Assembly: GCA_002395235.1 (NCBI GenBank)
Contig: DGWK01000008.1
Location: forward strand, 34,174-98,173
DNA length: 64,000 nt
Direction: 5' to 3'
Source of the DNA: Lachnospiraceae bacterium UBA4260
Lineage (GTDB): Bacteria > Bacillota > Clostridia > Lachnospirales > Lachnospiraceae
The notes below the pieces were generated by a model that did not search any database, was not told where the DNA came from, and was given only the letters and a program-made list of their open reading frames with translations. Positions 14,963 to 54,898 of the stretch are shown in pieces. The position numbers and the translations under genes are program-made. How positions within the stretch are numbered: the stretch's first letter is position 1; every line of letters starts with the position of its first letter.

Positions 14963-14986
14963 TTCTTATTAAATCCTCCTTTGTTG

Positions 14987-15013
14987 TCAGCACTCTTTGT
15001 TGTTGAGTGCTAA
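14987..15013 (-). promoter_or_regulatory. CIRCE element (HrcA operator) upstream of lon
   Basis: Minus strand reads TTAGCACTC-aacaacaaa-GAGTGCTGA, one mismatch from the consensus TTAGCACTC-N9-GAGTGCTAA, about 25 bp upstream of the lon start. Confidence 0.85.
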
Positions 15014-15053
15014 TTCCAGGGTAAAAAATTTGGCTTCACCGGGAAGCCGTTCC

Positions 15054-15112
15054 TTGACACTTGTCAATGTTTTGATATGATAGATAGTAGCATCGGCCTT
15101 GACAGTTGTCAA
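15054..15112. promoter_or_regulatory. Two TTGACA-N2-TGTCAA palindromes, probable TetR operators
   Basis: ttgacacttgtcaa (15054-15067) and ttgacagttgtcaa (15099-15112) lie between divergent lon and tetR. Confidence 0.65.
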
Positions 15113-15160
15113 GGTTGTTCATATTCTTTTTAGAATTACGTGATTGACAGAGGATATACC

Positions 15161-15703
15161 ATGTACGAAGGATGCAACAAGACTGCCATCGCCTCGCAGG
15201 CCGCGATCGCCGAAGCGCTCATAGAATTAATGAAGGATAAGCCCTATTCCCGCATCAGCGTGAGCGAGATCTGCAAGCGCGCCGGCGTCTCCCGCCAGAC
15301 CTTCTACTCTCTCTTTGCCTCCAAGGACAATGTCATCTCCTTCATTCTCGAGCGAAAATACTGCTTCCGCCCGCAGGACCACGAGTGCTGCCGTTCCTCC
15401 ATGACACTGGAGGACATTTGCCGCGCCTACAGCCAGTACATTACGGAGCGCAGAGATATGATCGTCCTCCTCGTCCGCAACGACATCCTCTACCTGCTGC
15501 AGGACAGTCTTTACAGCTCCTTCATTGAGTGCGAAGATTACTTACCCGGCTACCCCGCCCAGGACCGGGTCTATGCCGCTGATTTTCTTGCCGGCGGCCT
15601 CACGGGGATCGCGCGCAATTACGCACGCCCGGGCACAGTCACCTCGCAGCAGCATCTCGAGGAGATCCTTTACTCACTTTTCAGCGGTTCTTTCTTTCAT
15701 TAA
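15161..15703 (+). CDS. TetR/AcrR-family transcriptional regulator
   Basis: AIAEALIELMKDKPYSRISVSEICKRAGVSRQTFYSLFASKD helix-turn-helix. Confidence 0.9.
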   Translation: MYEGCNKTAIASQAAIAEALIELMKDKPYSRISVSEICKRAGVSRQTFYSLFASKDNVISFILERKYCFRPQDHECCRSSMTLEDICRAYSQYITERRDMIVLLVRNDILYLLQDSLYSSFIECEDYLPGYPAQDRVYAADFLAGGLTGIARNYARPGTVTSQQHLEEILYSLFSGSFFH

Positions 15704-15718
15704 AGGAGATACATTTTT

Positions 15719-16591
15719 ATGAACACAAATATACAGATCGACCCTGTAAAAGACGGCAAAAGACTGCTCATGGTCTGTGTCGCAGCCTTGATCATGGCGC
15801 TGAACATCCGGACCCTCGTCCACACAGGCGGCCTGATCCCCGGCGGCGCTACAGGCATGACGATCCTGATCCAACGGCTGGCGAAACTCCTGCTCTCGGT
15901 CGACCTCCCCTATACGCCGGTCAACCTTCTGCTCAACGCGGTCCCGGTCTATATCGGATTCCGCTTTATCGGGAAGAAGTTCACCCTGCTTTCCCTCGTC
16001 ATGATCATGCTCTCCGGCTTTCTCACCGACCTGATCCCAGCCTACACGCTGACCCAGGACATTCTCCTGATCAGTATTTTCGGCGGTATCGTCAACGGTT
16101 TCGCGATCAGTCTGTGCCTTCGGGCGGACGCCACCAGCGGCGGCACGGATTTTATCGCGATCTACCTCTCACAGATGCACGGCGTGGAATCCTGGAACCT
16201 GATCCTCGGATTCAATGCGGTGCTGCTCCTGATCGGCGGTTACTTTTTTGGCCCGGATAAGGCGCTCTATTCCATCATCTTTCAGTACGCCTCCACGCAG
16301 GTCCTGCATCTGATGCACAGAAACTACCAGAAAGTGACCTTCCTCATCGTCACCGACAAACCGGAGCAGATCTGCGCCGGGATCCATGACATGACCCACC
16401 ACGGCGCCACGATCTTTCACGGGGAGGGCGGTTACGGGCACAACCGGCGCAACCTGGTCTACTCCGTGATCAGCGGGAGCGATGTGCGGGGGATCAAGAA
16501 AGGCGTCCGCGAGATCGATCCTGCCGCTTTCGTCAACACCTTCAGTTCCGGAGAGATCATGGGCAACTTCTATATGCAGCCAAAAGATTGA
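15719..16591 (+). CDS. YitT-family membrane protein (DUF2179 C-terminus)
   Basis: GLIPGGATG, ADATSGGTDFIAIYL, multiple TMs, C-terminal HGATIF.GEGGY...IDPAAFV. Confidence 0.9.
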   Translation: MNTNIQIDPVKDGKRLLMVCVAALIMALNIRTLVHTGGLIPGGATGMTILIQRLAKLLLSVDLPYTPVNLLLNAVPVYIGFRFIGKKFTLLSLVMIMLSGFLTDLIPAYTLTQDILLISIFGGIVNGFAISLCLRADATSGGTDFIAIYLSQMHGVESWNLILGFNAVLLLIGGYFFGPDKALYSIIFQYASTQVLHLMHRNYQKVTFLIVTDKPEQICAGIHDMTHHGATIFHGEGGYGHNRRNLVYSVISGSDVRGIKKGVREIDPAAFVNTFSSGEIMGNFYMQPKD

Positions 16592-16641
16592 CGGCGCCGG
16601 CCTTCAATTTCTCACCTGACTTATATACTTTATCAGAAACC

Positions 16642-16680
16642 GGCCGTTCGCAATGCCTGCACTGCGAACGGCCTTTCTTG
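16642..16680 (+). terminator. Rho-independent terminator after the YitT gene
   Basis: ggccgttcgca / tgcgaacggcc stem followed by tttcttgtt. Confidence 0.65.
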
Positions 16681-16890
16681 TTGCATAATCCGTCGCAATT
16701 GTTTAGTCATTTTCAACAACTTTCGTATTCTACTATTCCCCACTTTATAAAATTTTTCCAAAAAAATTGGTTCCAGTCATTTACGGACACGTCGAAATAG
16801 CATACAATAGACTTAGATTTTTGTGGCAATGTTTACGCACGCACGTTGCCTCGAAATAACCACTGAAACTACAAATAAGGGAGGTTCTCT

Positions 16891-18018
16891 ATGAAGCAAA
16901 TTGAAATGTTAGCTATGATCCTGGCCGGTGGCCGGGGAAGCCGCCTGCTCGACCTTACCAACCACGTAGCAAAGCCGGCTGTCGCTTACGGCGGCAAATA
17001 CCGCATCGTCGATTTCCCGCTCAGCAACTGCGCGAACAGCGGCGTTGACGTAGTAGGTGTTCTGACGCAGTACGAGTCCGTGCTTCTCAACAGCTATGTT
17101 GCGAAGGGCGGTCTGTGGGGACTTGACACCAAGGACAGCGGTGTTTTCGTTCTTACACCCCGTGAAAAGGCTGACGCAGGCCTCGATGTATACCGCGGAA
17201 CAGCTGATGCTATTTCCCAGAATATCGATTTCATCGACACCTACAATCCGCAGTACCTTCTGGTTCTTTCGGGCGACCACATCTACAAGATGAACTATGA
17301 CAAGATGCTCGACTTCCACAAGGCACAGGGCGCAGCAGCTACCATTGCAGTTATGCCCGTTTCCATGAAGGAAGCATCCCGTTTCGGTATCATGATCACC
17401 GACGAGAACGACAGGATCATCGATTTCGAAGAAAAGCCCGCACATCCCCGCAGCACTCTCGCTTCCATGGGTATTTATATCTTTGATTGGCCCAAACTCC
17501 GTGAGATCCTGGTCAAGGATATGGTAGATCCCAACTCCGCACATGATTTCGGCAAGACCATCATTCCGGAACTGATGAACAACGGCGAGAAGCTCGTTGC
17601 CTTCAAGTTCGAAGGATACTGGAAGGATGTCGGAACCATCGACTCTCTGTGGGAAGCCAACATGGACCTTCTCGATGAGAATTGCGACCTCAACCTCGAC
17701 GATCCCACATGGAAGATCTATACCGAGGATGCGGTTGCTCTTCCCGCCTATATCGGCCCCAACGCTTCCATCGACCGCGCTTACATCACACAGGGCACGA
17801 GCATTGACGGAACCATCAAGAACTCCGTTATCTTCACCGGTGCCAAGGTAGGAAAGGGCGCACAGATCATCGATTCCGTCCTGATGCCCGGCGTATGTGT
17901 CGGAGATGGCGCAGTGATTACCCGCGCACTGGTTGCGGACGATGTCAAGATCAGTGCAGGCGCAGTGGTTGGCAGCGCAGACAGTGAATCGATCACGCTG
18001 CAGGCCAGCGATATTTAA
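16891..18018 (+). CDS. glgC: Glucose-1-phosphate adenylyltransferase, catalytic subunit
   Basis: [57 protein letters not shown]. Confidence 0.97.
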
Positions 18019-18032
18019 GGGGGTGCACAATA

Positions 18033-19142
18033 ATGGCTAAAGCTTTTGGTATTATCACTTCATCTGCAGAGCACAAGGTTGAAGGTCTTCAGGATTATCG
18101 TCCGATCGGCAGCTTCACCTTCCTGGGAAGATATCGTGTCATCGACTTCCCCATCTCGAACCTGAGCAACAGCGGCATTATCAACCAGCAGGTTTATATT
18201 GCCAGCAAGGCCCGCTCCATGATCGCACACATCGGAACCGGCCGTCACTACAACATCAACTCCAAGCGCGGAAGACTGCAGCTTCTTCCTCCCACAGAGG
18301 AGAAGGTGAATGATATCTACAACACCAACATCCGGGCTATGTACGATAACCTTGAGTACATCAAGAGACAGTCCCAGGAGTACGTTGTGATCGCTCCCAG
18401 CTGCATGGTCTTCAAGCAGGACTATGACGCCCTCCTTCAGGGCCACGCCGCTTCCGGCGCTGACATCACGGCTCTGTATCACACCGTTCATCATGCAAGG
18501 AACGGCTATGAGACCTGCCACATCTTCGATGTCGTCGACGGCAAGGTCAATGCGATCCGCCGCAACCACGGCGATGAGGACGTTCGCGCGATCTCCATGG
18601 AGTCCTTCGTCATGAAGAAATCCCTGCTGATCAAACTGATCAACGAGGCAAGAGCGATCTCCTCCATGTACAACCTCTCCGACGTCATCAACGCCAAGAT
18701 TGGCGATCTCGATGTCCGTGCGGTTGAACACTTCGGTTATTTCGGACCGATCACCAGCCTCAAGAGCTACTATGACGCCAACAAGCAGCTTCTGGATCCT
18801 GCAAAGGCAGCTGAGCTCTTCACACCCGACTGGCCGATCTACACAAGGACCAACGACTCCTGCCCCACTCAGTATTATGAGGAAGCTGAGGTCAAGAACT
18901 CCCTCATCTCCAACGGCTGTGAGATCCGCGGAACTGTCGAGGATTCCGTCATCGCACGCGGCGTTGTGATCGGCAAGGGCAGCGTTATCAAGGGCTGCTA
19001 CGTTGCAGCTTACACAAAAATCGGCGAGAATGTCACTCTCGAGAACCAGGTCGTTGACAAGTACGTCACCATCAATCACGAGAACACGATCGTCGCAAGC
19101 GCAGAGAATCCCGGATACATCAAGTACATGGATAATCTGTAA
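18033..19142 (+). CDS. glgD: Glucose-1-phosphate adenylyltransferase, GlgD subunit
   Basis: RPIGSFTFLGRYRVIDFPISNLSNSGI, NDSCPTQY, SLISNGCEI; immediately follows glgC. Confidence 0.92.
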   Translation: MAKAFGIITSSAEHKVEGLQDYRPIGSFTFLGRYRVIDFPISNLSNSGIINQQVYIASKARSMIAHIGTGRHYNINSKRGRLQLLPPTEEKVNDIYNTNIRAMYDNLEYIKRQSQEYVVIAPSCMVFKQDYDALLQGHAASGADITALYHTVHHARNGYETCHIFDVVDGKVNAIRRNHGDEDVRAISMESFVMKKSLLIKLINEARAISSMYNLSDVINAKIGDLDVRAVEHFGYFGPITSLKSYYDANKQLLDPAKAAELFTPDWPIYTRTNDSCPTQYYEEAEVKNSLISNGCEIRGTVEDSVIARGVVIGKGSVIKGCYVAAYTKIGENVTLENQVVDKYVTINHENTIVASAENPGYIKYMDNL

Positions 19143-19214
19143 TTGTCAGTAACCACGGCCCGGCTGAACATAGTCGGGCCGCTGTTAACCACTTACATCA
19201 AGGAGGATATAAAA

Positions 19215-20078
19215 ATGTTAGTATCTGCAAAAGAAATGACTGCTGCTGCAAGAGCCGGTCACTATGCCATCGGCGCTTTCAACCTCAACAACCTTGAGTG
19301 GACAAAGGCTGTTCTGAAGGCTGCTCAGGAGTGCAACGCACCCGTGATTGTACAGTGCTCTGAAGGCGCAGGCAAGTACATGGCCGGTTACAAGACCGTT
19401 GCCGATATGGTTAACGACGTGATCGCATCCCAGGGCATCACCGTTCCCGTAGCGCTTCACCTTGACCACGGCTCATACGAAGGGTGCCTCAAGTGCATCG
19501 ACGCCGGTTTCTCCAGCATCATGTTCGACGGCTCTCATTTCTCCATCGAAGAGAACATCGCTAAGACCAAAGAGCTGGTAGCTCTTGCTCACGAGCACGG
19601 CATGTCCATCGAGGCAGAAGTCGGCGGCATCGGCGGCGAAGAAGACGGCGTTGTCTCTCAGGGCGAGTGCGCAGATCCCGACGAGTGCAAGATGATCGCT
19701 GATCTCGGCGTAGATTTCCTTGCCTGCGGTATCGGCAACATCCACGGCAAATATCCCGCAAACTGGGCAGGCCTTCGTTTCGACGTCCTTGAGGCCATCA
19801 AGGAGAAGGTAGGCGACATGCCTCTCGTTCTTCACGGCGGTTCCGGTATCCCCACCGAGATGATCCAGAAGGCCATCAAACTTGGCGTTTCCAAGGTCAA
19901 CGTCAACACTGAGTGCCAGATCGCATTCGCAGAGGCAACCAGAAAATACATCGAAGAGGGCAAGGACCTTCAGGGCAAGGGCTTCGATCCTCGTAAGCTT
20001 CTCGCTCCCGGCGCACAGGCAATCACAGACTGCGTCAAAGAGAAGATCATCATCTTCGGTTCCGATAACAAGGCTTGA
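19215..20078 (+). CDS. fba: Class II fructose-1,6-bisphosphate aldolase
   Basis: YAIGAFNLNNLEW, VALHLDHG, MFDGSH, IGNIHGKY, LVLHGGSG; RBS AGGAGG before ATG 19215. Confidence 0.95.
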   Translation: MLVSAKEMTAAARAGHYAIGAFNLNNLEWTKAVLKAAQECNAPVIVQCSEGAGKYMAGYKTVADMVNDVIASQGITVPVALHLDHGSYEGCLKCIDAGFSSIMFDGSHFSIEENIAKTKELVALAHEHGMSIEAEVGGIGGEEDGVVSQGECADPDECKMIADLGVDFLACGIGNIHGKYPANWAGLRFDVLEAIKEKVGDMPLVLHGGSGIPTEMIQKAIKLGVSKVNVNTECQIAFAEATRKYIEEGKDLQGKGFDPRKLLAPGAQAITDCVKEKIIIFGSDNKA

Positions 20079-20128
20079 AGCTGATTTTCAGCCAAACGAT
20101 TATTGGCCAATTAATAGTGGAATAATAT

Positions 20129-20168
20129 CAGGAGGCTGTCACCGGTCGGTGACAGCCTCCTGTTTGTT
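20129..20168 (+). terminator. Rho-independent terminator after fba
   Basis: caggaggctgtcacc / ggtgacagcctcctg perfect stem followed by tttgttt. Confidence 0.85.
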
Positions 20169-20213
20169 TGCGGCAATGCCCGGCATGCGGCCGTTTATTT
20201 TCAGCGGTGCACG

Positions 20214-20537
20214 CTAAGCGGGCCGTTTCATCGCTTCTTCACGAGCAGCGTAAGGTTCTGAACTCTGAATACCATCCCTTGTAAACGGAAAGACCTCCTG
20301 GTCTTCATAGACCAGGAGGTCTTCCATTCTCACCCCCAGGATCCTGGAGAGAGCCAGGAGGTTATCAACAGTCGGCAGGCATTCACCATGCTGCCATTTA
20401 TAAATGGCCTGCGGGTACTCAAACCCAAAGTAGGTCTGGAGGTCCCGCACGCTAAGGCCGGCTTTCCGGCGGCATCTTTCGATGTTGCTGCCGGTGCCTT
20501 TGAGATTGATTACAGGGAAATAGACCATTTTTGCCAT
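20214..20537 (-). CDS. XRE/Cro-family helix-turn-helix regulator
   Basis: TGSNIERCRRKAGLSVRDLQTYFGFEYPQAIYKWQHGECLPTVDNLLALSRIL. Confidence 0.85.
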   Translation of the reverse strand: MAKMVYFPVINLKGTGSNIERCRRKAGLSVRDLQTYFGFEYPQAIYKWQHGECLPTVDNLLALSRILGVRMEDLLVYEDQEVFPFTRDGIQSSEPYAAREEAMKRPA

Positions 20538-20733
20538 ACTTTCCTCCTCTCTTGTACAGGCCTTGCTGTGCGTGCCATAGAAGTGGCGACACTATTCTTT
20601 TTTAACAACACCAACTATAGCACTTATCTTTTTGACTGTCTTTAAACCTGTAGTATAAAGGCGCCGCTGCTCCTCCGTGTCGGAAGATTGTCTCCCAGCC
20701 GGAAAGATGCGCCGCCGTGCGTACATGATGCAA

Positions 20734-20773
20734 ACGCCGCAGTCCCCAAGACAAACGCTCGGGACCGCGGCGT
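20734..20773 (-). terminator. Probable terminator hairpin downstream of the AAA/FtsH-like gene
   Basis: acgccgcagtccc / gggaccgcggcgt stem about 40 bp past the stop at 20816. Confidence 0.5.
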
Positions 20774-20815
20774 ATTATGCAGCATAATTACAATATAACC
20801 CTTTCGCTTATTCTC

Positions 20816-23800
20816 TCAACTGTTCAGAATCTCCATGATCTCTTCGCCTGTGAGGTGATTCTCTGCCAGCAGTTTCGCCGAGAGCTTCTCCACCTTGTCC
20901 TTTCCCTCTTCGATCATCCTGACCGTACCCGCCATCTCCTCCTGCAACAGGTTGTTGATCCTGAGCAGGTAATCTGAAGCCAGCGGCGTCTCCAGGATCA
21001 TTTTGAAGGGAAGTGCGATCATCTGGCCGCTCATCATGCCGTAGTCACACAGAAGGCTGCTGGCGTATCTGGTGGCGCTCTGAAGGTCGCTGGACGCTCC
21101 GGTGTTGAGGGACGCCTCCTTGCCGAAGAATACCTCTTCTGCAGCTCTGCCGCCCAACGCGCAGCGGATCTTCCAGATCAGCTCTTCCTTGGTTAAATTG
21201 GGCTTCTTCTCGCTGTTCTCGTGGGCCATGTAGCCGCCGAAATCGCCTCTCGACTCAATCGTGACATAGGAAGGCCTCTCCCCGGAGAGCCAGGCAATAT
21301 AGGCGTGCCCGGACTCATGGACGGATACCGACCTGTAATAGGCCTCGCTCCACTCTCTCTTTTCGCCGTAATTGAACTCTTCCAGTGCTGTCAGAAGATC
21401 GTCCCCGGTCGGCCGGCGGCCGTCATTGTCCGCGTTTCTGACCGCGAGGTCTATCACGTTCTGAAGGATCGCAAGGCTGGTTCCCGGCGTTCTGGTCGCG
21501 ATATTATGAATGACATCCTTGCTGATCTCTTCGAATCTCTTTTTCTCTGTGAGAATTCTCAGATACTTTTCTCTCTCCTCCTCGTTGGGGAGGTCGACGA
21601 GAATTCGGTTGTCGAACCTGCGGACAAGGGCCGGATCCAGCGACATGGGCCTTCCCTGTGACGGCTCTATATTGTAGTTGGTCGCCGCAAGCACAAATAC
21701 AGGATTGTTGAGATCCACCGTAAAACCGTCCATCTCCGTGAGCAGCGCATTCAGCGCGGACTCGGTGTGAGATTCTCCCGTCCTTGTCTTGCCGATCGCG
21801 TCGATCTCGTCAATAAAGATGATCGCCGGCGCATACTTTCTGGCTCTGTTAAAGATCGCGCGGATATTTGCCTCACTCTGTCCCACCCATTTGCTGAGGA
21901 ATGCTGTGGCATTTGTCTGAATGAAGGATACGTTGGATTCTCCTGCCATTGCTCTCGCCAGCATGGTCTTGCCGGTTCCGGGCGGTCCGTACAGGAGCAC
22001 GCCTTTGGGCGCCTTGCGGCCTTCCCTGACATACTTTCTGGGATTTGTCAAAAATCGAATGAAGGTCTTCAGCTCTTTTTTGGCATTTTCAGCGCCGATC
22101 ACGTCGTCAAATCGCTCCTTGGGCCGGGCTGCATCCGACAGAACCGTTGAAGCACTCTCCGCATCAATCGCCTGTTTCTTCTTAAAGCCATGATACCTGA
22201 TGACCAGTGTCCCGTCCGAGACGACCTGCGCAGTATTGTAGTCCAGCACATAGCCGTGCTTGGAGAACTCTCTGCTCTGGCGGTCAAGGAACACCGAATC
22301 GGACAGCTTCCTGACGGACTCCCGCACTGTCTCCTCGTCGTTATCCACAATAGAGATCACGCCTTCCGCTCCTCTTTGGATAAAGAGGCCAATGTCTGTC
22401 TCCTGGTACTTTTCTCCTGCTTCGATCAGGTAGATCGGAATATTCGTTCCTTCTTCCACGACCGCGCCGAAAGCATCCAGGCCAAAAGAGTGGTAGTCAT
22501 CCAGGCTTATGCCGCCTGTGCCGTCCATTTCAAGGCCCTTCTTAAGATCGATCAGAATGAGAGCGAGCCCCATGCTGACCATCTCTCTTACCTGCGCGAT
22601 ACTGTCAAAGAAATGAACCGTATATTTCTCCTCCGGCAGTTTAAAGGAAGGACGGTCCTCCTCTCGGCAGACTACGCCGATCTCCAGCTTCTCCGGATTC
22701 TCAAAAAGCCTTCTGATCTCCTCAGGAACATCTTCCATGTCCATGCCGAGTTCAAATCTCAGATCACTTACGTCCTCCATCAGATCCGGATGACTTTCGA
22801 GCTGTCTGGAAAGTTCAAAGAGCTCATTCTTTATGAAATTATCGCCCTGCTTTGTGGCGATCCTGGCATCCATTGATGCGCCGTGATGGAACATGAACAG
22901 CGAAGAGAGCCTTTCGTCCATGGATACTTTATAGCCGTAAGTCTCCTCGACCTGCGCTGCCGTCCTGGCGAATTTCTCCTCAACGATGGAGACCATCGCG
23001 CGGCTGCCCAGATGGTTGAACATGATCACATTTCCGGCCGCGATCCTGGAGCAGATCGCTTCAGGGAATACCTTCTCCCCTGTCGTCGGGTTTGTCTCAT
23101 TTTTCAGAGCGCTCAGGATCACCGATTTCGGAGTGGAAGAAATCGTTCCGTAATTGCCCTCGTAGATACTGCGGCAGGCATTGGAAGTAAAGATAATGAT
23201 CGCCTGATCGAATTTCGTCTTTGTCTTTTTGAAGACGTTATCACAGCTGGCCTGGTCCAGGATCTGCAAAAAGATCTGGATCGTATTCCGGCTCGCCTTC
23301 TCAATCTCGTCAAAGATGAGCAGACATCTGGGGTTCTCGTCCACGAACTTGACCAGTTTCCCCTCATTGGCCGGGCTTCCGTTGTTGTAGAGCGCCGATA
23401 CGCCGATCAGCCCTTCATGGGCCTGGAAAGAGGAATACTCGCTCATATTGAAGGTTTCGTAAGGAAGTCCCATACTGTCCGCTGCGGTCTCAGCGAGCAG
23501 CGTCTTTCCGACGCCGGGAGGACCCACGAACAGGAAGGATGCCTTGGGCGTCTTGCGCTTTTCTTTATTGTCAAGGACCACGCCCTGGTAAACGCCCTGT
23601 ACAAACTCCGTGACAGGTCCCTGCTGGCTCTTAACAGTCTCCAGAAGATCCATTCGGAGCTTTCTGCAGGTCTCGGCGAGCTTTACGAACTTCTCTTTTT
23701 TCTCCTCCGGCGTCTCTTCCTTCTTCTCGAAGGTAAAGGAACCTGTCTGTTCTTCCTTCGGCGCCTCCGGGGCGGGCTGCGCAGACTGTGCGCTCCTGTC

Positions 23801-24346
23801 CGCCTCTTTCTTCGCAGGCTCACCCGCCTCTGCTTTCGCAGCTTCTGCCGCAGGTGCATCCTGCTTTTCCTTCTCCTCTTTCTCAGCCTTCGCCTTTGCT
23901 ATGAGTTCTTCCCGGATCTTATCCGTCGACTCCTTCAGCCGATCAGAAAGAGCGAATACATCATTGATCGAATTTCCCGTCGCAAATGCGGCCAGGATAT
24001 CGTCATTTTCTCTGTAGTAACCCGTCAAAATATCGTACGAAGAAGGCAGATCGACAACTTCTATGTCCTTTATGTCCCCGTTCAGCCACAGTGTTTCGAT
24101 ATAGCTGAACAAAAGAGGCATCCCGGTCTTGATCAGCTTCGTGTCCAGTCTCTTTTCTCCGAAAAAACGGACCGCATTCTTCCAGTCTTCCGACGGATCC
24201 TCCGGGCAGACGATCCCGCGCATTGTCTCATCCATTTCGACGAAGCTGGAATATCCGTAGTAAAGATGATAGGCTGTGATCGCACCGTCGCGAAACGAAT
24301 TCTTGCCGGCTAAGGACAAAGCCGCCTTTAATACATTGTTGTTCAC
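20816..24346 (-). CDS. Soluble fusion of ClpA/B-type AAA+, receiver-like domain, FtsH-type AAA+ and M41 zinc peptidase
   Basis: AAA 1: GPPGVGKT, LLIFDEIEKA. Middle: ALILIDL...IPIYLI...GAEGVI (CheY-like pattern). AAA 2: RFDDVIGAENAKKEL, GVLLYGPPGTGKT, IFIDEIDAIG, LDPALVRRFD. Peptidase: HESGH and ALGGRAAEEVFFG. No TM helix seen. Confidence 0.85.
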   Translation of the reverse strand: MNNNVLKAALSLAGKNSFRDGAITAYHLYYGYSSFVEMDETMRGIVCPEDPSEDWKNAVRFFGEKRLDTKLIKTGMPLLFSYIETLWLNGDIKDIEVVDLPSSYDILTGYYRENDDILAAFATGNSINDVFALSDRLKESTDKIREELIAKAKAEKEEKEKQDAPAAEAAKAEAGEPAKKEADRSAQSAQPAPEAPKEEQTGSFTFEKKEETPEEKKEKFVKLAETCRKLRMDLLETVKSQQGPVTEFVQGVYQGVVLDNKEKRKTPKASFLFVGPPGVGKTLLAETAADSMGLPYETFNMSEYSSFQAHEGLIGVSALYNNGSPANEGKLVKFVDENPRCLLIFDEIEKASRNTIQIFLQILDQASCDNVFKKTKTKFDQAIIIFTSNACRSIYEGNYGTISSTPKSVILSALKNETNPTTGEKVFPEAICSRIAAGNVIMFNHLGSRAMVSIVEEKFARTAAQVEETYGYKVSMDERLSSLFMFHHGASMDARIATKQGDNFIKNELFELSRQLESHPDLMEDVSDLRFELGMDMEDVPEEIRRLFENPEKLEIGVVCREEDRPSFKLPEEKYTVHFFDSIAQVREMVSMGLALILIDLKKGLEMDGTGGISLDDYHSFGLDAFGAVVEEGTNIPIYLIEAGEKYQETDIGLFIQRGAEGVISIVDNDEETVRESVRKLSDSVFLDRQSREFSKHGYVLDYNTAQVVSDGTLVIRYHGFKKKQAIDAESASTVLSDAARPKERFDDVIGAENAKKELKTFIRFLTNPRKYVREGRKAPKGVLLYGPPGTGKTMLARAMAGESNVSFIQTNATAFLSKWVGQSEANIRAIFNRARKYAPAIIFIDEIDAIGKTRTGESHTESALNALLTEMDGFTVDLNNPVFVLAATNYNIEPSQGRPMSLDPALVRRFDNRILVDLPNEEEREKYLRILTEKKRFEEISKDVIHNIATRTPGTSLAILQNVIDLAVRNADNDGRRPTGDDLLTALEEFNYGEKREWSEAYYRSVSVHESGHAYIAWLSGERPSYVTIESRGDFGGYMAHENSEKKPNLTKEELIWKIRCALGGRAAEEVFFGKEASLNTGASSDLQSATRYASSLLCDYGMMSGQMIALPFKMILETPLASDYLLRINNLLQEEMAGTVRMIEEGKDKVEKLSAKLLAENHLTGEEIMEILNS

Positions 24347-24502
24347 TGAATATCTCCCTTATTTCAAGCAAGGCTCTCAACGCGAGCCGCCGCGCCGCGC
24401 GCCGCCGGCACGCAGTGGGTAAACATACAGCAGCCGAACCACTCTGAGGATCCGGCTGCTGTGATTATCTGTTCTATATCAACTACCGATCAGACCGGCT
24501 TG

Positions 24503-24910
24503 TCACATGTACAGAGATCTCATGAACTCGGGATAAGCGTCATCACAGATCAGCAGCATTCTGTACATAAGGCCGAAGGTCTCATCGCCGCAGGTGCTGG
24601 GCTCAACAACCGCGTCGTCTGCCAGTGTCACTGTCATGTCATTCTCGTCGACATAGAATTTTACCCAGCTGTATTTCTTGTTCATCTGGGAGCAGAGTCT
24701 GAGAATGTTATTCATCTTGTCATCCGGAACTCTGATATAATTGAAGGACCTGAGGTGAACTTCATTTCTTTCTTCCTCAATGTGAATGTAAAGGTCGATC
24801 TTCTGCGCATTCTTGCCGCTGAATCCGGTCTTGATCAATGTTCCGTCCGGGGTTGCCTGATAGTGCCAGCCCTTAGAATCCATGTACTTACAAATCATTT
24901 CACAAAGCAT
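24503..24910 (-). CDS. YbjN-like protein (type III chaperone-like fold)
   Basis: Size 135 aa; pattern ILRLCSQMNKKYSWVKFYVDEND. Confidence 0.7.
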   Translation of the reverse strand: MLCEMICKYMDSKGWHYQATPDGTLIKTGFSGKNAQKIDLYIHIEEERNEVHLRSFNYIRVPDDKMNNILRLCSQMNKKYSWVKFYVDENDMTVTLADDAVVEPSTCGDETFGLMYRMLLICDDAYPEFMRSLYM

Positions 24911-25106
24911 CCTTAACTCCTTTCTGACTGTAAAACAGACAGTGACCTTTTTTACGCTTATTAGATTATACTAAATATTCAGCAACTTGAACAGATAATT
25001 AAACTGAAAGATTAAGTAATTGTGCATTTCATTCATAAAGAAAGCACGAACTATCCGATTATTCCTTTATATCGGACTTTAAGATTCAGAGAATGCTCAG
25101 CCGCCC

Positions 25107-26138
25107 TCACCACTGATAAGAGTTCTTTGCCGAAACAGGATATTCCGCCGTGTCCCAGACCCTGGACTGCTCCATATAATCATCTGAGACCAGCAGGAAC
25201 TGCTCTCTGTCTCCTCCGCCGTCGTTCCAGCAGGCGTCCATGTGATACCAGGCCCCGTCATACTTGACCATGTTCCAGGCGTGTCCGCCCCCCGGCGTAT
25301 CTCCCCAGATGTTTATGCAGTCAACGCCGTATTCATTCAGCAGAAGCTCACACGCTCTCGCGTATCCCTCGCAAACAGCACTGTGTTCTCTGAAAAGGCC
25401 ATATGCAGTGTGTGACTGGGGCGAATATCCTTCCAACACTCCGGGGTATTTCGAAAGATCCTGCGGCGGATACTCGTTATTGTCACACAGATAATCGTTG
25501 ACGGCCACGATGATCTCAAGATCTGATTTTCCTTTAAGATTCAGCTCACTCAGTGCGTCTTTCACAAGCTGCCGGGTCTCCTGCTTGATGCGCACAAGCT
25601 CAGAGACCGGAAGATCATATTCCAACACCAGCGTCCCCGAGTTTCCCGAGCTTGCCATACCATAGGTTCTTACGCATATACCGTCAATGGAATCCTTGCG
25701 CATTGCCCTGTCCAGAACTTTCAGGTAGATATCAAAGTCAAAAGTATAGCCGTTTACTAGCGTATACTGCGCCGTTGTCTTTGTCTCATCCATCATCCAG
25801 GCAAGGATTTTCTCGAGATCCTCATCCGAGCCGATCGTATCGTTCCCCGTCGTATCGAGCTGATCATCCTCGTCGGTCTGGTCTATAATAACCTGCGCTT
25901 CATCTTCCTCGATCGGCTCAGGCTGCTTGCGCATAGCGGAATAGGAGTCAATCAGTTCCTGCAGCATCTTGGCCGAATTGCCCGGCAGCTCATATTCGAC
26001 CTCTTCTTTCCCGTCCGCATAGCTGTCCGAGCCTGCCTGCAGCATATCAGACGGATTCTGGTCATTTCCTCCACAGCCGGCGAGCAGTGCAAGGCAGGAT
26101 AATACCACAAGAATTACTGACCATATTCTTTTTTTCAC
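25107..26138 (-). CDS. Lipoprotein with transglutaminase-like (Cys-His-Asp) domain
   Basis: Signal peptide with lipobox LLAG|C; AVCEGYA, GHAWNMV, MDACWND. Confidence 0.85.
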   Translation of the reverse strand: MKKRIWSVILVVLSCLALLAGCGGNDQNPSDMLQAGSDSYADGKEEVEYELPGNSAKMLQELIDSYSAMRKQPEPIEEDEAQVIIDQTDEDDQLDTTGNDTIGSDEDLEKILAWMMDETKTTAQYTLVNGYTFDFDIYLKVLDRAMRKDSIDGICVRTYGMASSGNSGTLVLEYDLPVSELVRIKQETRQLVKDALSELNLKGKSDLEIIVAVNDYLCDNNEYPPQDLSKYPGVLEGYSPQSHTAYGLFREHSAVCEGYARACELLLNEYGVDCINIWGDTPGGGHAWNMVKYDGAWYHMDACWNDGGGDREQFLLVSDDYMEQSRVWDTAEYPVSAKNSYQW

Positions 26139-26159
26139 AGCTTACCCTTCCTTTCCGGT

Positions 26160-29100
26160 CTATTTCTTTCCTTCGACCATCAATTTGAACGCTTCGAACG
26201 GATTTACATGGCTGCCTTCGCTTTCCAGAGTCTTCATATATTCTTTGAATGCCTTGAATCCTTCCCCGTATTCGTCTTTTCTCGCCATGAGTTCCTCTTC
26301 CATAGCATCTGCATAATCCGACTCGCCGAAATCGCGCATGGCACTTACTTCCACATAGCTGGCATGACCTTCCATGGCCACGAGGCCTCCACCCGGTCCG
26401 AGCTTATTCAGCTTCTTCAAGCCAATCTCCTCAAACTGCCAGTAATGCGTCAGCTCGTGGATCAGTGTCGACTGCACTGTGTTTCTAGGGCCGCGCGCCT
26501 CAATCCACAGCGCCTTCTTTCTGCCTCTGTCCTTGCGTTCACAGAAACCGAGCACTCTATCGTAAGGGCTGCCCTTCCCTATTCTCTTACGAATCGCTTC
26601 CGCGCTCGCGAATCGAAGATGCAGATTCTTCGGACGTCTGACTCCGTAGTGATAATACATATTATTTACTACCGTCTCATATAGCTGCCGGATCTCATCC
26701 TCCTGCCGGATCATCTGATTTTCACAGTCTCTGCAGATGCGGCGTCCGTCGTGCATCTCCTTCCAGAACACTGTCGGTTTACCGCAAAAAGAGCATCTAA
26801 TCCCGCCGGGGATATCGGGGGCCGTGGCAAAGCCTTCAGATTCCTCAAGCTTGGGCAGAAAGCTTTCACAGAATGATTCCAGCTCTGCAGAGGCGAAGAA
26901 CGCGGGCAAGGTATCCAATCCCAGATGCAGGAAACCGCCTTCTGTTTTTCCTGCCGGATCTGATGAAGCAAACCGCCTGTTATACCATTTCAGATAGTTG
27001 TCTACGATTCGGAACACTTTTATCCTGTTTTGATACAGACTTGAGATCATTCCCAATTCGATAGCGCTGTATTCAACAATATACAGCGATATTTTTTCCT
27101 CATCAGTGGAACTGTCTGCGATCTCTTCCATTTTTCCCGGACGGATGAAGGGGACTATACTATGGATCTTCTCCTCCGCTGACGCAGCGGCCGTGTCTTT
27201 AAAGAGTTTCGTCCAGTAATCATCTGACGCGTCAAATCGGGTGATGACAAACAGGTTCATATAACTGTCCGGGAACAGCGTTTTGAACAACTCCTGCATC
27301 ATGAACGCCAGAAGAAGGACCATTTGTTCTGCTTTATCTCCGGCCACCCTGCATGGGATCCGAATCTCCAGCATCTGAATGCTGTTCTTAACCTCTACGA
27401 GATCATTTCCTTCTTTTCCGTAGCGGTCATAAACTCTGCTGAGGGACATGCCCGCCTCAGCACCAAGATTGATTCCCCTGTCACTGCTCCAATAACCTTT
27501 GATAATTCGTTTGACATTGTTTGCCAGGTAGACGTTAAAATCAAGTACATCGTAATCCACACAATGATCAACGATCTGTCTGTTTCCGATTTCAAATTCA
27601 CTCGACTGATAATAGCTTTTGTGGCTTTCGGAAGCTACGTTTTCCGTGTAGACGATTCCATCCTCGATATTGAGTACATTGCGGAGAACACCTTTGATAG
27701 AGACAACCTGGTCTCGCAGGAAATAATTCATTACGTTATCTCGCAGTACAGGGATCTCTTCCACAGTCTCAGATGCCTTATGGTTCAGCTTAACAAACGA
27801 AGTCTGCCTGACCAGCTCCTTTTTAATCGCCTCGTTAATGAGGGTGATCGTCACCTGTCTCTCATATTCGTCAGTTGCCGCATTAAAGACAGTTTCTTCG
27901 CTGAAGTGGAAATGCTCATAGATATTATGATTTCTCTTTTTATCTTTGAGCACACTATTTAAAGCTACCCGGAGCAGATTGCCTATTCCTTTATAGTCCC
28001 AACCGTATTCTCTGCTTCTCTCCATGACATCTTTTTCCAGCATACCTGTATTGGCCATCTGCAGAAGAAGTGCCTGGAAGCGGCTGTGGTCGAGGTTGGA
28101 ACGCCAGCCGATCAAAGGCGCATAGTCGTTTTCTCTCCGGATCAGTTCTTCAATATTTTCAGCAAAATAATCTCTTAAAAGATACTGAGGCGAAACGATG
28201 TGGATCAGGGTACCTTTTTTTCCTCCGTATTTTAACCAGTTCCACAGTGTATTATACAGATTGAAATGATCATCATACAGAATGATCATATCCAGGTTTT
28301 CTTTCTCCAGGATATCTGAATAGTCATTGATCCGGATCCACTGAGAATAATCAGTATCTCTTCTTAAAAACCGGCGTATTTCCCTCTGATTGGCGCTCAA
28401 TGCCTTTCTATATGTCAAAAGAGGTTTGCTCTCTCCTGCATATACATGGACAGAAGGAAATTCCACGCCGACCGCGATCAGGGCTAACGTCATAGAAACG
28501 CCAATGTATTCCGAAAGGTCGCCGCCTATCCCCAATCGCCTCTGCGTTCTGTAATACCCCTCTTCGGCCCAGGCCATCACATAAGTTTCCACCTGATTGC
28601 CGACGTTCTTAAATGGGGTGATATCTTTACCGATGTAAGTTCCGAAACTTGCTTCCAGCGTCGGACTCTCCACTTCAGATACCAGCACATACTGATACTC
28701 TTTCTCAAACTCCTTCGAAATTCTCGAAAATTCGGAGAAGATCATTTCTTTGTGAATATTGCTGTATGCGCTGAATGTGACGGCTCTGTCGATCACTATC
28801 ATCTTCAGATTTTTGAAAAAGTCTTTTCTTTTGGCCAGCAGTTTGTAGCTGACAAGATCCTGAAAACCTATGACAAGAATATGGATCGTCTCATTGTTAG
28901 CAGCTTTGTCGCGGCCGCCCACGCTCCACATACACGTAACTCTATTGATTCGTTCAAGTCTCTCATCGACAATCCTTTGAAGTTCAACCGCACGCTCGTT
29001 GTCCATGCAGAGGATCAAAAAAGTGTCCCCTTCCGTGCAATAATAATTCATATACGCGCACAGATAAGTCAGGATCTCACCCTGCAGATAATCTCTGATA

Positions 29101-30116
29101 CTCACGGAAGAATCATTAAGAAGTTCTACAAGGACATTATTGTACTCTTTGTTCGTTCGAACCCCGGCTTCTCTGAGCTGATTGCTGATGATCTCCAGTA
29201 CATGAGGCTTTTTGCACGCTTCCTGCTGCGAGTTGGTAACGCCGTTATATTTCAGCCCGCTGCTCTGCATACTGACCATTCGAGGCTCATAGGACTTTAA
29301 TAATACTTTTGTTCCTCCAAAATATGCTAAATAGAGATTAAAAAGGTTTTTCAGCTGCCCTCTGAGCTCCATATCTATGTCGTCACTTTGAAATGAATTT
29401 CCGCCTAAATTCATATTGTGCTCAAGGAAGAACTGGATCTGTTCAAACAGGAGGAATCCTGCTGAAGGCAGCATATACCATCCCCATGTGATCTTCCTTG
29501 TCATCTCAGCCAAAGGTTTGTCTGCACCGATCACGATGATACTGACTCCGACAACCTCTATAACACCCAGAAGGATAAAAGCATTCTTCATACTGCGGAT
29601 CCAGTGGTACCAGACGCTGCCTTTCGCGTTGACCTCGTATTCATATCCGCCTTCAGCTTCCGTATACGCAAGATCTGACAAGAGCCACGGAAAATGAACC
29701 AGCTTTTCTGTGAACGTGCCGTCCTTTACACTGATAAAACTTCTGTTGCGAAAAAGCAGCCGAATAATACCGAGCACCAAATCCGCAAGCAGAATGAAAA
29801 ACAGATTCATCAATATGATCAGGAGCAGCATATAGATCAGCTCATAATTTCGCTCAGGCGTCATCGTGTTAAAAAAGCCGGTCAGAAAAGAATTACTGAT
29901 CACACGGTCAAGTCCTTGAAGAATGTAAGGAAGCATGAGCCGGTTTCCCGACAACAAGATCAGTACGGCAAGTACAACGATCAGTCTGCAGTGCAGATAT
30001 CTTTCATTGATATCGTATTTTATAAATTGGATCGGAATATGCGCCACTATCAGAGCACCTGTACATATCAGCAGAAAAAGCAGATAATGTGCAAGCATCA
30101 TAATCAATTCATTCAT
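26160..30116 (-). CDS. Multi-TM protein with degenerate SF2 (DEAD/DEAH-like) helicase core, Cys4 Zn finger and HExxH (DA1-like) metallopeptidase
   Basis: N-terminal hydrophobic helices; motif remnants FLILCMDNERAVEL (Ia), ILVIGFQDL (Ib), LKMIVIDRA (II), no GKT; C-terminal CSFC...CRDC then STLIHELTHYWQ...EGHASY. Confidence 0.6.
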   Translation of the reverse strand: MNELIMMLAHYLLFLLICTGALIVAHIPIQFIKYDINERYLHCRLIVVLAVLILLSGNRLMLPYILQGLDRVISNSFLTGFFNTMTPERNYELIYMLLLIILMNLFFILLADLVLGIIRLLFRNRSFISVKDGTFTEKLVHFPWLLSDLAYTEAEGGYEYEVNAKGSVWYHWIRSMKNAFILLGVIEVVGVSIIVIGADKPLAEMTRKITWGWYMLPSAGFLLFEQIQFFLEHNMNLGGNSFQSDDIDMELRGQLKNLFNLYLAYFGGTKVLLKSYEPRMVSMQSSGLKYNGVTNSQQEACKKPHVLEIISNQLREAGVRTNKEYNNVLVELLNDSSVSIRDYLQGEILTYLCAYMNYYCTEGDTFLILCMDNERAVELQRIVDERLERINRVTCMWSVGGRDKAANNETIHILVIGFQDLVSYKLLAKRKDFFKNLKMIVIDRAVTFSAYSNIHKEMIFSEFSRISKEFEKEYQYVLVSEVESPTLEASFGTYIGKDITPFKNVGNQVETYVMAWAEEGYYRTQRRLGIGGDLSEYIGVSMTLALIAVGVEFPSVHVYAGESKPLLTYRKALSANQREIRRFLRRDTDYSQWIRINDYSDILEKENLDMIILYDDHFNLYNTLWNWLKYGGKKGTLIHIVSPQYLLRDYFAENIEELIRRENDYAPLIGWRSNLDHSRFQALLLQMANTGMLEKDVMERSREYGWDYKGIGNLLRVALNSVLKDKKRNHNIYEHFHFSEETVFNAATDEYERQVTITLINEAIKKELVRQTSFVKLNHKASETVEEIPVLRDNVMNYFLRDQVVSIKGVLRNVLNIEDGIVYTENVASESHKSYYQSSEFEIGNRQIVDHCVDYDVLDFNVYLANNVKRIIKGYWSSDRGINLGAEAGMSLSRVYDRYGKEGNDLVEVKNSIQMLEIRIPCRVAGDKAEQMVLLLAFMMQELFKTLFPDSYMNLFVITRFDASDDYWTKLFKDTAAASAEEKIHSIVPFIRPGKMEEIADSSTDEEKISLYIVEYSAIELGMISSLYQNRIKVFRIVDNYLKWYNRRFASSDPAGKTEGGFLHLGLDTLPAFFASAELESFCESFLPKLEESEGFATAPDIPGGIRCSFCGKPTVFWKEMHDGRRICRDCENQMIRQEDEIRQLYETVVNNMYYHYGVRRPKNLHLRFASAEAIRKRIGKGSPYDRVLGFCERKDRGRKKALWIEARGPRNTVQSTLIHELTHYWQFEEIGLKKLNKLGPGGGLVAMEGHASYVEVSAMRDFGESDYADAMEEELMARKDEYGEGFKAFKEYMKTLESEGSHVNPFEAFKLMVEGKK

Positions 30117-32182: not shown

Positions 32183-32278
32183 GAGACTTTCCCTCCGTTC
32201 TATTGAACTCTCTGCAGAAGATGACAAGGCTGCTCTGCCTTACTGGCAGGCAGCCTGTCATAAAACTCCCTTGTTCGA

Positions 32279-35827: not shown

Positions 35828-35847
35828 ATATTTTTCCTCCTCATTGA

Positions 35848-53853: not shown

Positions 53854-53899
53854 AAATCCGCTTTCCCTTAAAGAGTACTCTTCCTGTCCACAGTCGGAC

Positions 53900-54898
53900 T
53901 CAGCCGTTAGTGGTTGAACCGACCACCGTATATCCGACCACAACATAGACTGCGATCTGAAGGATTCCCAGTACCAGTCCGAAGACCCCTTTCACCATGC
54001 CCATGATCATGGAGCTGAGGCACATGATGATCAAGGGCATGAGCAGCACAGGAATATAAAGGATCAAAGTCTCTTTGACTCTTTCCAAAAAACAAATGAT
54101 TATAAGGAATCCGATCGCCGCACCAAGAAGTCCGCCTATTACGGACATATAGGCCATAAATGTCCCGGCGGAGTTGAAGTTACTGATCAGAGACAGGGAC
54201 CCCATAAAAGAAATATTGTTTTCATAAACAGGTTTAAGCAATATACCGCTGATGATTCCGGCCGCTATGTAAACTGCCCACAGGGTCAGTGTCGAATTGC
54301 TGCTTTCCAGCTTACTCCAGTTATCGGTATGAATCTTTATTTCGCCAAGATCACCGATCTTATCCAGATTAAGCCTGTTGCCGGCTGAAACACGTTCAAT
54401 ATAAATGGACTTACTCCCGTCCTTCCCCTGTGGATCCGTTTCAACGAGATCCTTGCCCAGCATTTGAGCTTTTTCGAAGCGCTCCAGTGTCGCCTTCGCA
54501 GAAGCATGACCTGCATCTGCCGCCTTCTTCAGCCAGGTGTCCGCTTCATCAAGGTCTGCTTCGCATCCCTTCCCTGTGCTCAGATTTCTGAACAGCCGGT
54601 ACATGCACTCGGCGTCTCCCTGTTCCGCCCCTCTTCTGTAATACATGGTCGCGTACGCGTCGTTCTGAGGAACGCCGTCTCCATACGCGTAGCACATAGC
54701 CAGCTGTCTTGCCGCTTCCGCGCTGCCATTGTCAAGAGCTGCCTCGAGCTTGCCGATCACTGTATTCATGTCACGGTCCCCGTCCAATCCGCTCTTCATT
54801 CTCAGGGCGCTTTCCAGCAGCTCCTGTCCGGCCGGTCTCCCGGCATTACTCGCATAGTCGGCATAATCCTGATATCCCATATCCATCTCTGCTCCCAT
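53900..54898 (-). CDS. Sel1-like repeat protein with C-terminal TM helices
   Basis: AARQLAMCYAYGDGVPQNDAYATMYYRRGAEQGDAECMYRL...GKGCEADLDEADTWLKKAADAGH; about 4 TMs; start after RBS AGGAG. Confidence 0.85.
   Translation of the reverse strand: MGAEMDMGYQDYADYASNAGRPAGQELLESALRMKSGLDGDRDMNTVIGKLEAALDNGSAEAARQLAMCYAYGDGVPQNDAYATMYYRRGAEQGDAECMYRLFRNLSTGKGCEADLDEADTWLKKAADAGHASAKATLERFEKAQMLGKDLVETDPQGKDGSKSIYIERVSAGNRLNLDKIGDLGEIKIHTDNWSKLESSNSTLTLWAVYIAAGIISGILLKPVYENNISFMGSLSLISNFNSAGTFMAYMSVIGGLLGAAIGFLIIICFLERVKETLILYIPVLLMPLIIMCLSSMIMGMVKGVFGLVLGILQIAVYVVVGYTVVGSTTNG

Follow-up and report, generated by a model that had tools for sequence, protein, structure and literature searches.

Introduction

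Among the AAA+ proteases of bacteria, FtsH is regarded as the membrane-bound one, and in Hsp100 proteins a classical-like first AAA+ module (D1) is followed by a second one (D2) of the HCLR clade. MecA and ClpS dock on the N-domains of Clp proteins, class I chaperones of type III secretion systems (T3SS) hand their clients to a hexameric ATPase, and receivers of the NtrC1 type control AAA+ ring assembly through helix alpha5. A soluble FtsH-type protein with two AAA+ domains has been described in the MoxR-vWA 'FtsH ternary systems', where both AAA+ domains are of the FtsH type, the first is catalytically dead and the protein is tied to MoxR and vWA genes (Kaur et al., 2020, PMC7159879). Here we describe a protease gene at 20816..24346 on the minus strand of a 64,000-nucleotide (nt) stretch from Lachnospiraceae bacterium UBA4260 (assembly GCA_002395235.1, contig DGWK01000008.1, positions 34,174 to 98,173), hereafter the window. 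It encodes a soluble chain of 1176 amino acids (aa) with the order AAA_2, receiver (REC) fold, FtsH-AAA and M41. Judged from its sequence, it belongs to an M41 subfamily that is uncharacterised, restricted to Clostridia and novel in its architecture, and our literature searches (YbjN with AAA+ or FtsH, FtsH with receiver and ClpB, soluble FtsH with two AAA+ domains) found nothing on such an AAA_2-receiver-FtsH-M41 family. The reading that we favour, with a probability of roughly 55%, is that of a cytosolic, ATP-dependent, single-chain and two-tier AAA+ zinc metalloprotease that is fed by a YbjN-like protein and coupled through a pseudo-receiver.

With FtsH (2CE7 from Thermotoga maritima, 4WW0 from Aquifex aeolicus) the window protease shares the succession of a classical-clade AAA+ module and an M41 peptidase that has the HExxH motif and a downstream Asp ligand. 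In contrast to FtsH, however, it lacks N-terminal transmembrane helices and a periplasmic domain, and has a further AAA+ ring at its N-terminal side as well as a receiver-fold domain; it also reads RRFD where FtsH has RPGRFD, and has an insertion of 10-12 aa after sensor-1. Its first motor shares with the D2 of class I Clp/Hsp100 proteins (ClpA, ClpB, ClpC) the GYVG-type pore Tyr, sensor-1, the Arg finger and sensor-2, but the clade order is reversed compared to Hsp100, with the HCLR-type module first and the classical one second. The M-domain and the ClpP-docking loop of Clp/Hsp100 proteins are absent, and the peptidase is fused in cis. The FtsH ternary system resembles the protease in that its FtsH-type protein is also soluble and has a pair of AAA+ domains. 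Identity with that system was considered and rejected, as D1 in the window is by its motifs an active Clp D2-type module and a MoxR-vWA pair is absent.

Domain order and catalytic motifs

The reading frame opens with a GTG codon, 7 nt downstream of an AAGGGAG ribosome-binding site, and closes with the stop codon at 20816-20818. All parts of the gene are given on the minus strand. At the N-terminus AlphaFold2 predicts a compact, all-alpha, family-specific domain (aa 1-140, 23927..24346), which is joined by a charged, low-complexity linker rich in E, K, A and P (aa 141-225, 23672..23926) to D1, a Clp/Hsp100 D2-type AAA+ module of the HCLR clade. Pfam AAA_2, NCBIfam and conservation define the large subdomain of D1 (aa 226-400, 23147..23671), while alignment and conservation define its small (lid) subdomain (aa 401-547, 22706..23146), which holds R434 and R495. 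Next comes the CheY-like receiver-fold domain (aa 548-696, 22259..22705), assigned by AlphaFold2, Foldseek, hhalign and column counts. A beta-hairpin and short helix (aa 697-742, 22121..22258), in which G698 and Q707 are conserved, join it to D2, the FtsH-type classical-clade AAA+ module (aa 743-995, 21362..22120), and the chain ends in the M41 zinc metallopeptidase (aa 996-1176, 20819..21361). D2 is recognised by Pfam, TIGR01241, FtsH chains in the PDB and conservation, and the peptidase by Pfam, motifs and conservation. N-terminal to AAA_2 there is no second AAA module, only the helical domain of 140 aa and the linker. Two plus-strand open reading frames (ORFs) lie antisense to the gene, at 22883-24313 (476 aa) and 22190-22876 (228 aa), and are taken as by-products of coding-strand composition.

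An initial annotation of this sequence had claimed two AAA+ clades with intact Walker A/B motifs joined to an intact HESGH M41 peptidase, and had proposed a domain search for AAA_2, Response_reg, AAA and Peptidase_M41. The first claim is borne out by Pfam, by the motifs and by conservation in 55 homologues, and three of the four families are indeed found, Response_reg being the one without a match. Pfam places AAA_2 (PF07724) at aa 267-397 (E 2e-26; 93.5 bits, cutoff 27), AAA (PF00004) at aa 783-918 (E 1.6e-52) and Peptidase_M41 (PF01434) at aa 1001-1173 (E 2e-25; 90.2 bits, cutoff 29.9), matches of a strength well outside the range of chance.

Functional residues were counted in an alignment of 55 homologues (A1). 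The Walker A motif of D1, GPPGVGKT at 275, contributes K281 (54/55), and its Walker B motif, LLIFDE at 342, contributes D346 (55/55) and E347 (54/55). Tyr320 in the pore loop is Tyr in 44 and Phe in 6 of the homologues, N389 at sensor-1 is kept in 54, and both the Arg finger R434 (motif CSR) and the sensor-2 residue R495 (motif DAR) are found in all 55. The pore-loop and Arg-finger assignments of D1 were checked by alignment to a canonical AAA_2 protein encoded in the same window (59027-60853), whose GAPPGYVG pairs with GVSALYNNG and whose PEILNRI pairs with PEAICSRI. D2 has its Walker A motif GPPGTGKT at 787 and its Walker B motif IIFIDE at 842; K793, D846 and E847 of these motifs, N890 at sensor-1 and the second-region-of-homology arginines R909 and R910 of the RRFD motif are invariant. 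The pore loop of D2 reads K-W-V-G at 819-822, and the aromatic position, W820 here, is Y, W or F in 53/55. Likewise invariant are H1010, E1011 and H1014 of the HExxH motif (HESGH at 1010) and D1087, the third zinc ligand of the peptidase. By these residues both motors, which are of different AAA+ clades, and the peptidase are apparently active.

The first module had been called ClpB-type. It does belong to the AAA_2 class, but Clp/Hsp100 D2-type describes it better, since the nearest NCBIfam model is the D2 domain of ClpA (1e-36), followed by ClpV1 and ClpB. Pfam ClpB_D2-small is not matched in the lid subdomain. On the FtsH side, the TIGR01241 model (FtsH_fam) aligns over aa 733-1169 and the solved FtsH chains 2ce7 and 4ww0 over aa 738-1174 (E ~1e-66). 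The scores of the orthology models nevertheless stay far below their cutoffs, for FtsH (TIGR01241 325.2 bits vs 600, PRK10733 210 vs 1008) as well as for Clp proteins in NCBIfam (ClpA 126 bits vs 993, ClpB 82 vs 1232). These equivalog scores rule out an FtsH orthologue and indicate a paralogous M41 member. In line with the absence of an FtsH transmembrane anchor, which the initial annotation had also noted, no transmembrane segment was found: Kyte-Doolittle means over 19 residues peak at 1.49, within beta3 of the middle domain. Instead of an FtsH-style membrane anchor, the N-terminus is predicted by AlphaFold2 to be a soluble helical domain.

A receiver-like fold between the two motors

For the middle region we built an alignment and profile of 30 sequences (A2). 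AlphaFold2 on A2 (predicted local distance difference test, pLDDT, 86.6; predicted template-modelling score, pTM, 0.76) gives the order beta1-alpha1-beta2-alpha2-beta3-(20-residue loop)-alpha3-beta4-alpha4-beta5-long alpha5, followed by the beta-hairpin. When this model was compared to the PDB by Foldseek, 50/50 of the top matches were receivers (E 2.8e-5 to 8e-4), among them NtrX, YycF, PorX, Spo0F, LuxO, RssB, NtrC1, CheY and PhoP, and the target-normalised template-modelling (TM) score was 0.62-0.73 for single-domain receiver entries. The models therefore support a receiver-like (beta-alpha)5 fold, and the CheY-like receiver with a candidate Asp that had been suspected in this linker is confirmed to that extent, with a conserved D600.

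Sequence searches see this relation less clearly. Response_reg of Pfam is unmatched in the isolated middle region even at E<=10, and the A2 profile against PDB sequences gives sub-threshold matches only (E 0.5-2), 4/7 of which are receivers aligned in register. An hhalign comparison of A2 with four canonical receivers (CheY, Spo0F, PhoB-N and NtrC-N, sequences entered by hand) yields E 0.0015 and a probability of 17%. It maps D600 to D57 of CheY, G622 to G65, E642 to T87 and G659/A660 to G102/A103, places an insertion of 14 residues with S614 and D617 directly after D600, and finds no counterpart of K109 in the middle domain. D600 stands at the end of beta3, in the motif ALILIDL at aa 595-601.

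Column counts were made in the 55 homologues and, more widely, in 126 diverse representatives. D600 is Asp in 53/55 and 117/126, and D617 in the insertion is kept in 55/55 and 115/126. Position 651 at the start of alpha4 is Asp in 55/55 and either Asp (57) or Glu (52) among the 126. At position 642, the equivalent of T87, the 55 homologues have Glu (44), Asp (4) and Thr (1), and the residues listed for the wider set are Glu (51), Asp (19), Gln (16), Asn (16) and Ser (7), with no Thr among them. No Lys is conserved after beta5 in either set, where K109 would be expected from CheY, the maximum being 10/55. Position 561, in the acidic pair after beta1, is Asp in 28/55 and 48/126 and Arg in the window protein, in whose clade it is followed by E562, E563 and D564. 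Conservation at the acidic positions D600, D617, D651 and E/D at 642 exceeds that of the core around them. Most likely, then, to judge from these columns, the middle domain is a pseudo-receiver that has a conserved acidic pocket and lacks the Thr/Lys switch residues.

The initial annotation had further supposed that the protease is switched by phosphorylation or a ligand. For phosphorylation we find no support: the place of Thr87 is taken by Glu, Asp, Gln or Asn, Lys109 is missing, the acidic pair after beta1 is not clearly conserved, and neither a Response_reg match nor a conserved nearby histidine kinase was found. In five annotated neighbourhoods no conserved histidine kinase or phosphotransfer gene lies beside the protease, and an unlinked kinase is possible. 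Because the equivalents of Thr87 and Lys109, a Response_reg match and a linked histidine kinase are all missing, a canonical phospho-switch is less likely than a pseudo-receiver.

The best structural matches, NtrC1, NtrX and LuxO, share with the window protease not only the receiver fold but also a long alpha5 that runs into an AAA+ module, and they suggest how a receiver might control the assembly of a ring. Their motors, in contrast, are sigma54-activator AAA+ modules, and they have the full D-D-D-T-K chemistry and cognate kinases, whereas the motor here is of the FtsH type. Receiver-fold control of AAA+ proteolysis is also a feature of the ClpXP adaptors RssB and CpdR, RssB being among the Foldseek matches. 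These adaptors, however, are separate, trans-acting and phosphorylatable proteins, while the domain described here is fused in cis between two motors.

Conservation of the fusion among homologues

A search of 5.8 billion proteins returned >100 full-length homologues of ~1120-1210 aa with 38-93% identity, which, where they are named, are called 'AAA family ATPase [Lachnospiraceae bacterium]' or 'ATP-dependent metalloprotease FtsH'. Against 1.84 billion representatives, the A2 profile of the middle domain finds only 273 clusters (50% identity) at E<=1e-3, and almost all of these place the domain at aa ~500-720 of proteins of ~1100-1250 aa. To judge by these sequences, the middle module appears to be essentially confined to the AAA_2-receiver-AAA-M41 architecture. 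Two doubts had been raised with the initial annotation, that the middle region might lack a flavodoxin-like fold and that the fusion might be an assembly chimera. Neither is upheld, as the predicted fold is flavodoxin-like and the complete fusion is kept in homologues. An assembly chimera was therefore rejected, given that the full fusion recurs in >100 homologues and ~273 clusters.

The family has a cultured member in [Ruminococcus] lactaris (WP_117687640.1), whose 90% cluster counts 1102 members. Loci were gathered from genomes and metagenomes, searched with tblastn, jackhmmer and HMMs, and dereplicated at 90% identity. Scanning genome contigs with the full-length alignment was swamped by canonical FtsH because of generic Walker patterns, so that only L004-L015 are true family members from that scan; metagenome contigs were scanned with an alignment of the D1 lid (A5).

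In four independent human-gut contigs (L092, L102, L104 and L123) the gene is split into ORFs of 366 and 848 aa, at the same place in all four. At >=90% identity the split-gene proteases fall into one group with P0020, the cluster protein of [Ruminococcus] lactaris, and a member of 848 aa is also present in the [Ruminococcus] lactaris protein cluster. The DNA was checked in L092 (around 9690) and L123, where a homopolymer change from A6 to A7 in the D1 pore-loop region causes the split. This could reflect phase variation, a circulating pseudogene allele or a recurrent assembly error.

The N-domain and exchange of N-terminal modules

AlphaFold2 models the N-domain as an eight-helix fold with a pLDDT of 94.2. 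Its 4+4 helix layout and the motif ITAYHLYYGY recall Clp_N, and among the weak Foldseek matches are the N-domains of ClpC and ClpB (E 4-6, TM about 0.4); this resemblance is suggestive only. In the PDB Foldseek finds no significant match (best E 1.7), Pfam has no match even at E<=10, Clp_N included, and the N-domain profile against PDB sequences finds just two matches, both to an 'uncharacterized protein'. The linker that follows is variable in sequence among the homologues, and the consensus is undefined there.

In some lineages the N-domain is missing and a Hanks-type Ser/Thr kinase is fused to the AAA_2-receiver-AAA-M41 core instead (L013, P0214, P0259, P0238). The kinase-fused members have 1843 to 2126 aa; the one of L013 (3068-8896) is 1942 aa long, and its kinase is followed by weak TPR and WD40 matches. 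In L010 a probable kinase gene, judged by sequence motif only, lies just upstream. Since kinases or other N-termini replace the N-domain, the AAA_2-receiver-FtsH-M41 core seems from these sequences to be a cassette with interchangeable recognition modules.

A YbjN-like gene as conserved neighbour

Directly upstream of the protease, at 24503..24910 on the same minus strand, lies a gene for a YbjN-family (T3SS-chaperone-like) protein of 135 aa, which matches Pfam YbjN (PF10722) with 4.9e-12 and 46.6 bits (cutoff 22). It is preceded by the ribosome-binding site GAAAGGAG and a TATAAT box, which suggests that the YbjN-protease pair in the window likely has its own promoter. YbjN homologues in other protease loci likewise match Pfam YbjN, and some loci (L001, L006) have two or three YbjN paralogues in tandem. 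An adjacent YbjN gene is present in 13/15 lineages with the N-domain, compared to 2/9 without it (Fisher p=0.003). The initial annotation had suggested that the protease may be self-contained, which is probably wrong because the YbjN-family gene is a conserved neighbour.

The YbjN superfamily has a T3SS-chaperone fold and is viewed as a group of peptide-binding chaperones (PMC5398634, PMC9503650). Given this fold and the pairing of N-domain and YbjN gene, we infer that the YbjN-like protein docks on the N-domain and serves as adaptor or chaperone; a part as anti-adaptor is also conceivable. By analogy to the ClpC N-domain with MecA and the ClpA N-domain with ClpS, the tethered helical N-domain probably takes adaptors. 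With T3SS class I chaperones and YbjN/AmyR (the TY-chaperone superfamily) the upstream gene has the Pfam YbjN match in common, but a secretion system is not present and the partner here is a protease. We know of no other case in which a YbjN-family protein is linked to an AAA+ protease, and no paper on one was found.

The spacer between the two genes (24347-24502, 156 nt) folds at -65.2 kcal/mol, with a z of -2.84 compared to shuffles. Folding places a very stable RNA hairpin with a stem of about 14 base pairs at 24428..24461 (minus strand), and a second GC-rich stem precedes the ribosome-binding site. Rfam has no match in 20000-26500, the spacer included, and a terminator scan does not call the hairpin at 24428-24461, which may be an attenuator or a processing site.

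Proposed mechanism and alternative readings

The results above show which domains the protein has, that its catalytic residues are intact, that the middle domain has a receiver fold, that the protein is soluble, and that both the fusion and the gene pairing are conserved. How the chains assemble, in which order a client is threaded, whether the YbjN-like protein is an adaptor and what the receiver fold regulates we infer in the following scheme. Like FtsH and Clp/Hsp100 proteins, the protease is presumably hexameric, and it would work in the manner of FtsH, Lon or ClpAP. The tethered helical N-domain would take clients from the YbjN/T3SS-chaperone-like protein encoded upstream, the Clp/Hsp100 D2-type ring would grip and unfold them via its pore-loop Tyr, the chain would be handed on to the FtsH-type ring, and the client would finally be cut in the M41 chamber. 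As in CheY and in an inserted domain, the N- and C-termini of the receiver fold would lie on one face, with alpha5 leading into the FtsH ring. As an allosteric or assembly module, the receiver-fold insert might couple or gate the two rings via the long alpha5 and the hairpin, and its conserved acidic pocket (D600, D617, E642, D651) may bind a metal, a small ligand or a basic partner residue. Several points weigh against this scheme. The N-domain has no significant structural relative, and its docking role is read from gene co-occurrence alone; L084 and L109 keep the N-domain yet have no adjacent YbjN gene; a domain of 150 aa plus a hairpin between the rings could block their coaxial stacking and hence serial threading; and the strict conservation of Asp at D600 would also be expected of a genuine phospho-acceptor.

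The last point leads to the possibility, unlikely in our judgement, that the domain is an atypical phospho-accepting receiver, in which an orphan histidine kinase or acetyl phosphate phosphorylates D600 and thereby switches ring assembly or coupling. In favour of it, 93-96% of homologues have Asp where CheY has D57, most members carry acidic residues behind beta1 (D561 in 28/55; E562/E563/D564 in the clade of the window protein), and the fold is nearest to the phospho-regulated REC-AAA+ proteins NtrX, NtrC1 and LuxO. However, an acidic side chain in place of Thr/Ser87, where Glu, Asp, Gln or Asn are found, should disfavour a phosphoryl group, the K109 equivalent is absent, 14 aa are inserted after the Asp, Pfam and PDB-sequence profiles stay below significance for receivers, and the examined neighbourhoods have no conserved kinase or phosphotransfer gene. 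The loss of the canonical switch residues T87 and K109 would also fit a domain that is a structural spacer or oligomerisation collar, in a constitutive protease controlled only by substrate delivery, and its near restriction to one architecture is what an integral structural part would show. We nonetheless hold this reading to be doubtful, because D600, D617, D651 and E/D at 642 outconserve the surrounding core, which points to a binding site over packing. The pseudo-receiver with a ligand- or partner-binding pocket remains the reading that we prefer.

Two further readings concern the purpose of the protease and not its middle domain. It could be dedicated to a cluster around a Tubulin_2 (FtsZl1-type) gene, and would then serve the turnover or maturation of the giant membrane-associated proteins of that cluster. 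The cluster is found immediately upstream in the same orientation (26160-38508), a related one with different gene order flanks the 54%-identical homologue in L084, and other family members are fused to or lie beside Hanks kinases, which are typical of FtsZl1 operons (PMC2875224). Such dedication is improbable, though, as beyond the window, L086 and L084 no locus has a tblastn-detectable homologue of the Tubulin_2 cluster near the protease, the YbjN-protease pair sits amid unrelated housekeeping genes in L001, L003, L085 and L126, and the pair in the window stands apart from the cluster, with a likely promoter and gaps of 196 and 156 nt in between. A role as anti-phage defence effector, to which PADLOC matches of the protease to IetA (2e-47) and DolB (3.8e-20) might point, is in our view very improbable: the matches cover generic AAA+ cores only, the IetS/DolA partners are absent, the neighbours have no PADLOC matches, the contexts are of housekeeping type, and the protein is conserved across the family instead of patchy. 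Membership in a defence system was rejected, the PADLOC matches IetA, DolB, PDC-M37B and TRIP13 being generic AAA+ matches whose partners are absent.

Possible significance

The pairing with YbjN offers a testable role, as a protease adaptor or chaperone, for a superfamily of unclear function. A soluble FtsH paralogue with a second motor in reverse order would be a natural experiment in the cooperation of heterotypic AAA+ rings, and a receiver fold in cis between motors would extend the NtrC/RssB/CpdR theme to a self-compartmentalised protease. Abundant Lachnospiraceae of the human gut carry the family, the cultured [Ruminococcus] lactaris among them, which makes it accessible to ordinary biochemistry. 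A wider and tentative idea, which we would not expect to hold in full, is that of a new class of cytosolic AAA+ proteases, in which a Clp-type unfoldase ring and an FtsH-type protease ring share one chain and are coupled by a pseudo-receiver gate, with swappable N-terminal modules for substrate selection. YbjN adaptors would dock on the N-domain of some members, or a fused Hanks kinase with TPR/WD40 would mark or sense the targets. If true, these proteases would form a phospho-degron or chaperone-degron system comparable to McsB-ClpCP, and one so far seen in Clostridia alone, many of which come from samples of gut or rumen.

Neighbouring genes in the window

Upstream of the YbjN-protease pair, on the same strand, four giant genes encode proteins of 886, 1182, 704 and 1318 aa (26160-38508, minus). 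The 1182-aa protein has an N-terminal GTPase of the Tubulin_2/FtsZl1 type (Pfam 1.8e-43), and the C-terminus of the 1318-aa protein shows a weak, sub-cutoff Pfam match to the metallopeptidase-like DUF6782. A gene for a transglutaminase-like lipoprotein (25107-26138) comes after the run of giant genes. The guanine-cytosine content is 0.43-0.47 in the giant-gene region vs about 0.53 in the flanks, and PADLOC has no matches in this cluster. It resembles the FtsZl1 'membrane-remodelling' operons of Makarova and Koonin (2010, PMC2875224).

The metagenome contig L086 has 94% DNA identity to the window over 13239-26946, but only 70% over 26974-32998; the break (26946-26974) falls inside the gene for the 1318-aa protein, about 260 codons from its 3' end. 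Identity is 99% for the protease of L086 and just 63-70% for the proteins of the Tubulin_2 cluster, so that the latter gives the impression of a recombining or hypervariable cassette. In L084 (700-23465), the contig that carries homologue P0010, homologues of the 886-aa, Tubulin_2 and 704-aa genes come after the protease gene. Genes for VWA, transglutaminase, Pkinase and PP2C proteins lie to its other side on the opposite strand, and no YbjN gene is adjacent. We treat the link between protease and Tubulin_2 cluster as facultative.

Directly downstream of the protease lies a gene for a Cro/C1-type helix-turn-helix protein of 107 aa (20214-20537, minus), which is 89% conserved in L086 and was not seen in the other annotated contexts. 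Further away, the region 52450-63946 (minus) is possibly a defence island. Its AAA_2-only protein of 608 aa (59027-60853), the one used above for alignment, has a canonical GYVG pore loop and PADLOC matches to PDC-M37B (3e-30) and DolB; beside it is encoded a HerA/mad8-like ATPase of 934 aa (54921-57725), near which small proteins have weak LmuB/JetC-like coiled-coil matches. On the other side of the protease gene, at a distance of 6 kb, a canonical Lon protease with LON_substr_bdg, AAA, Lon_lid and Lon_C is encoded at 12536-14962 (minus), and the organism therefore also has ordinary cytosolic AAA+ proteolysis.

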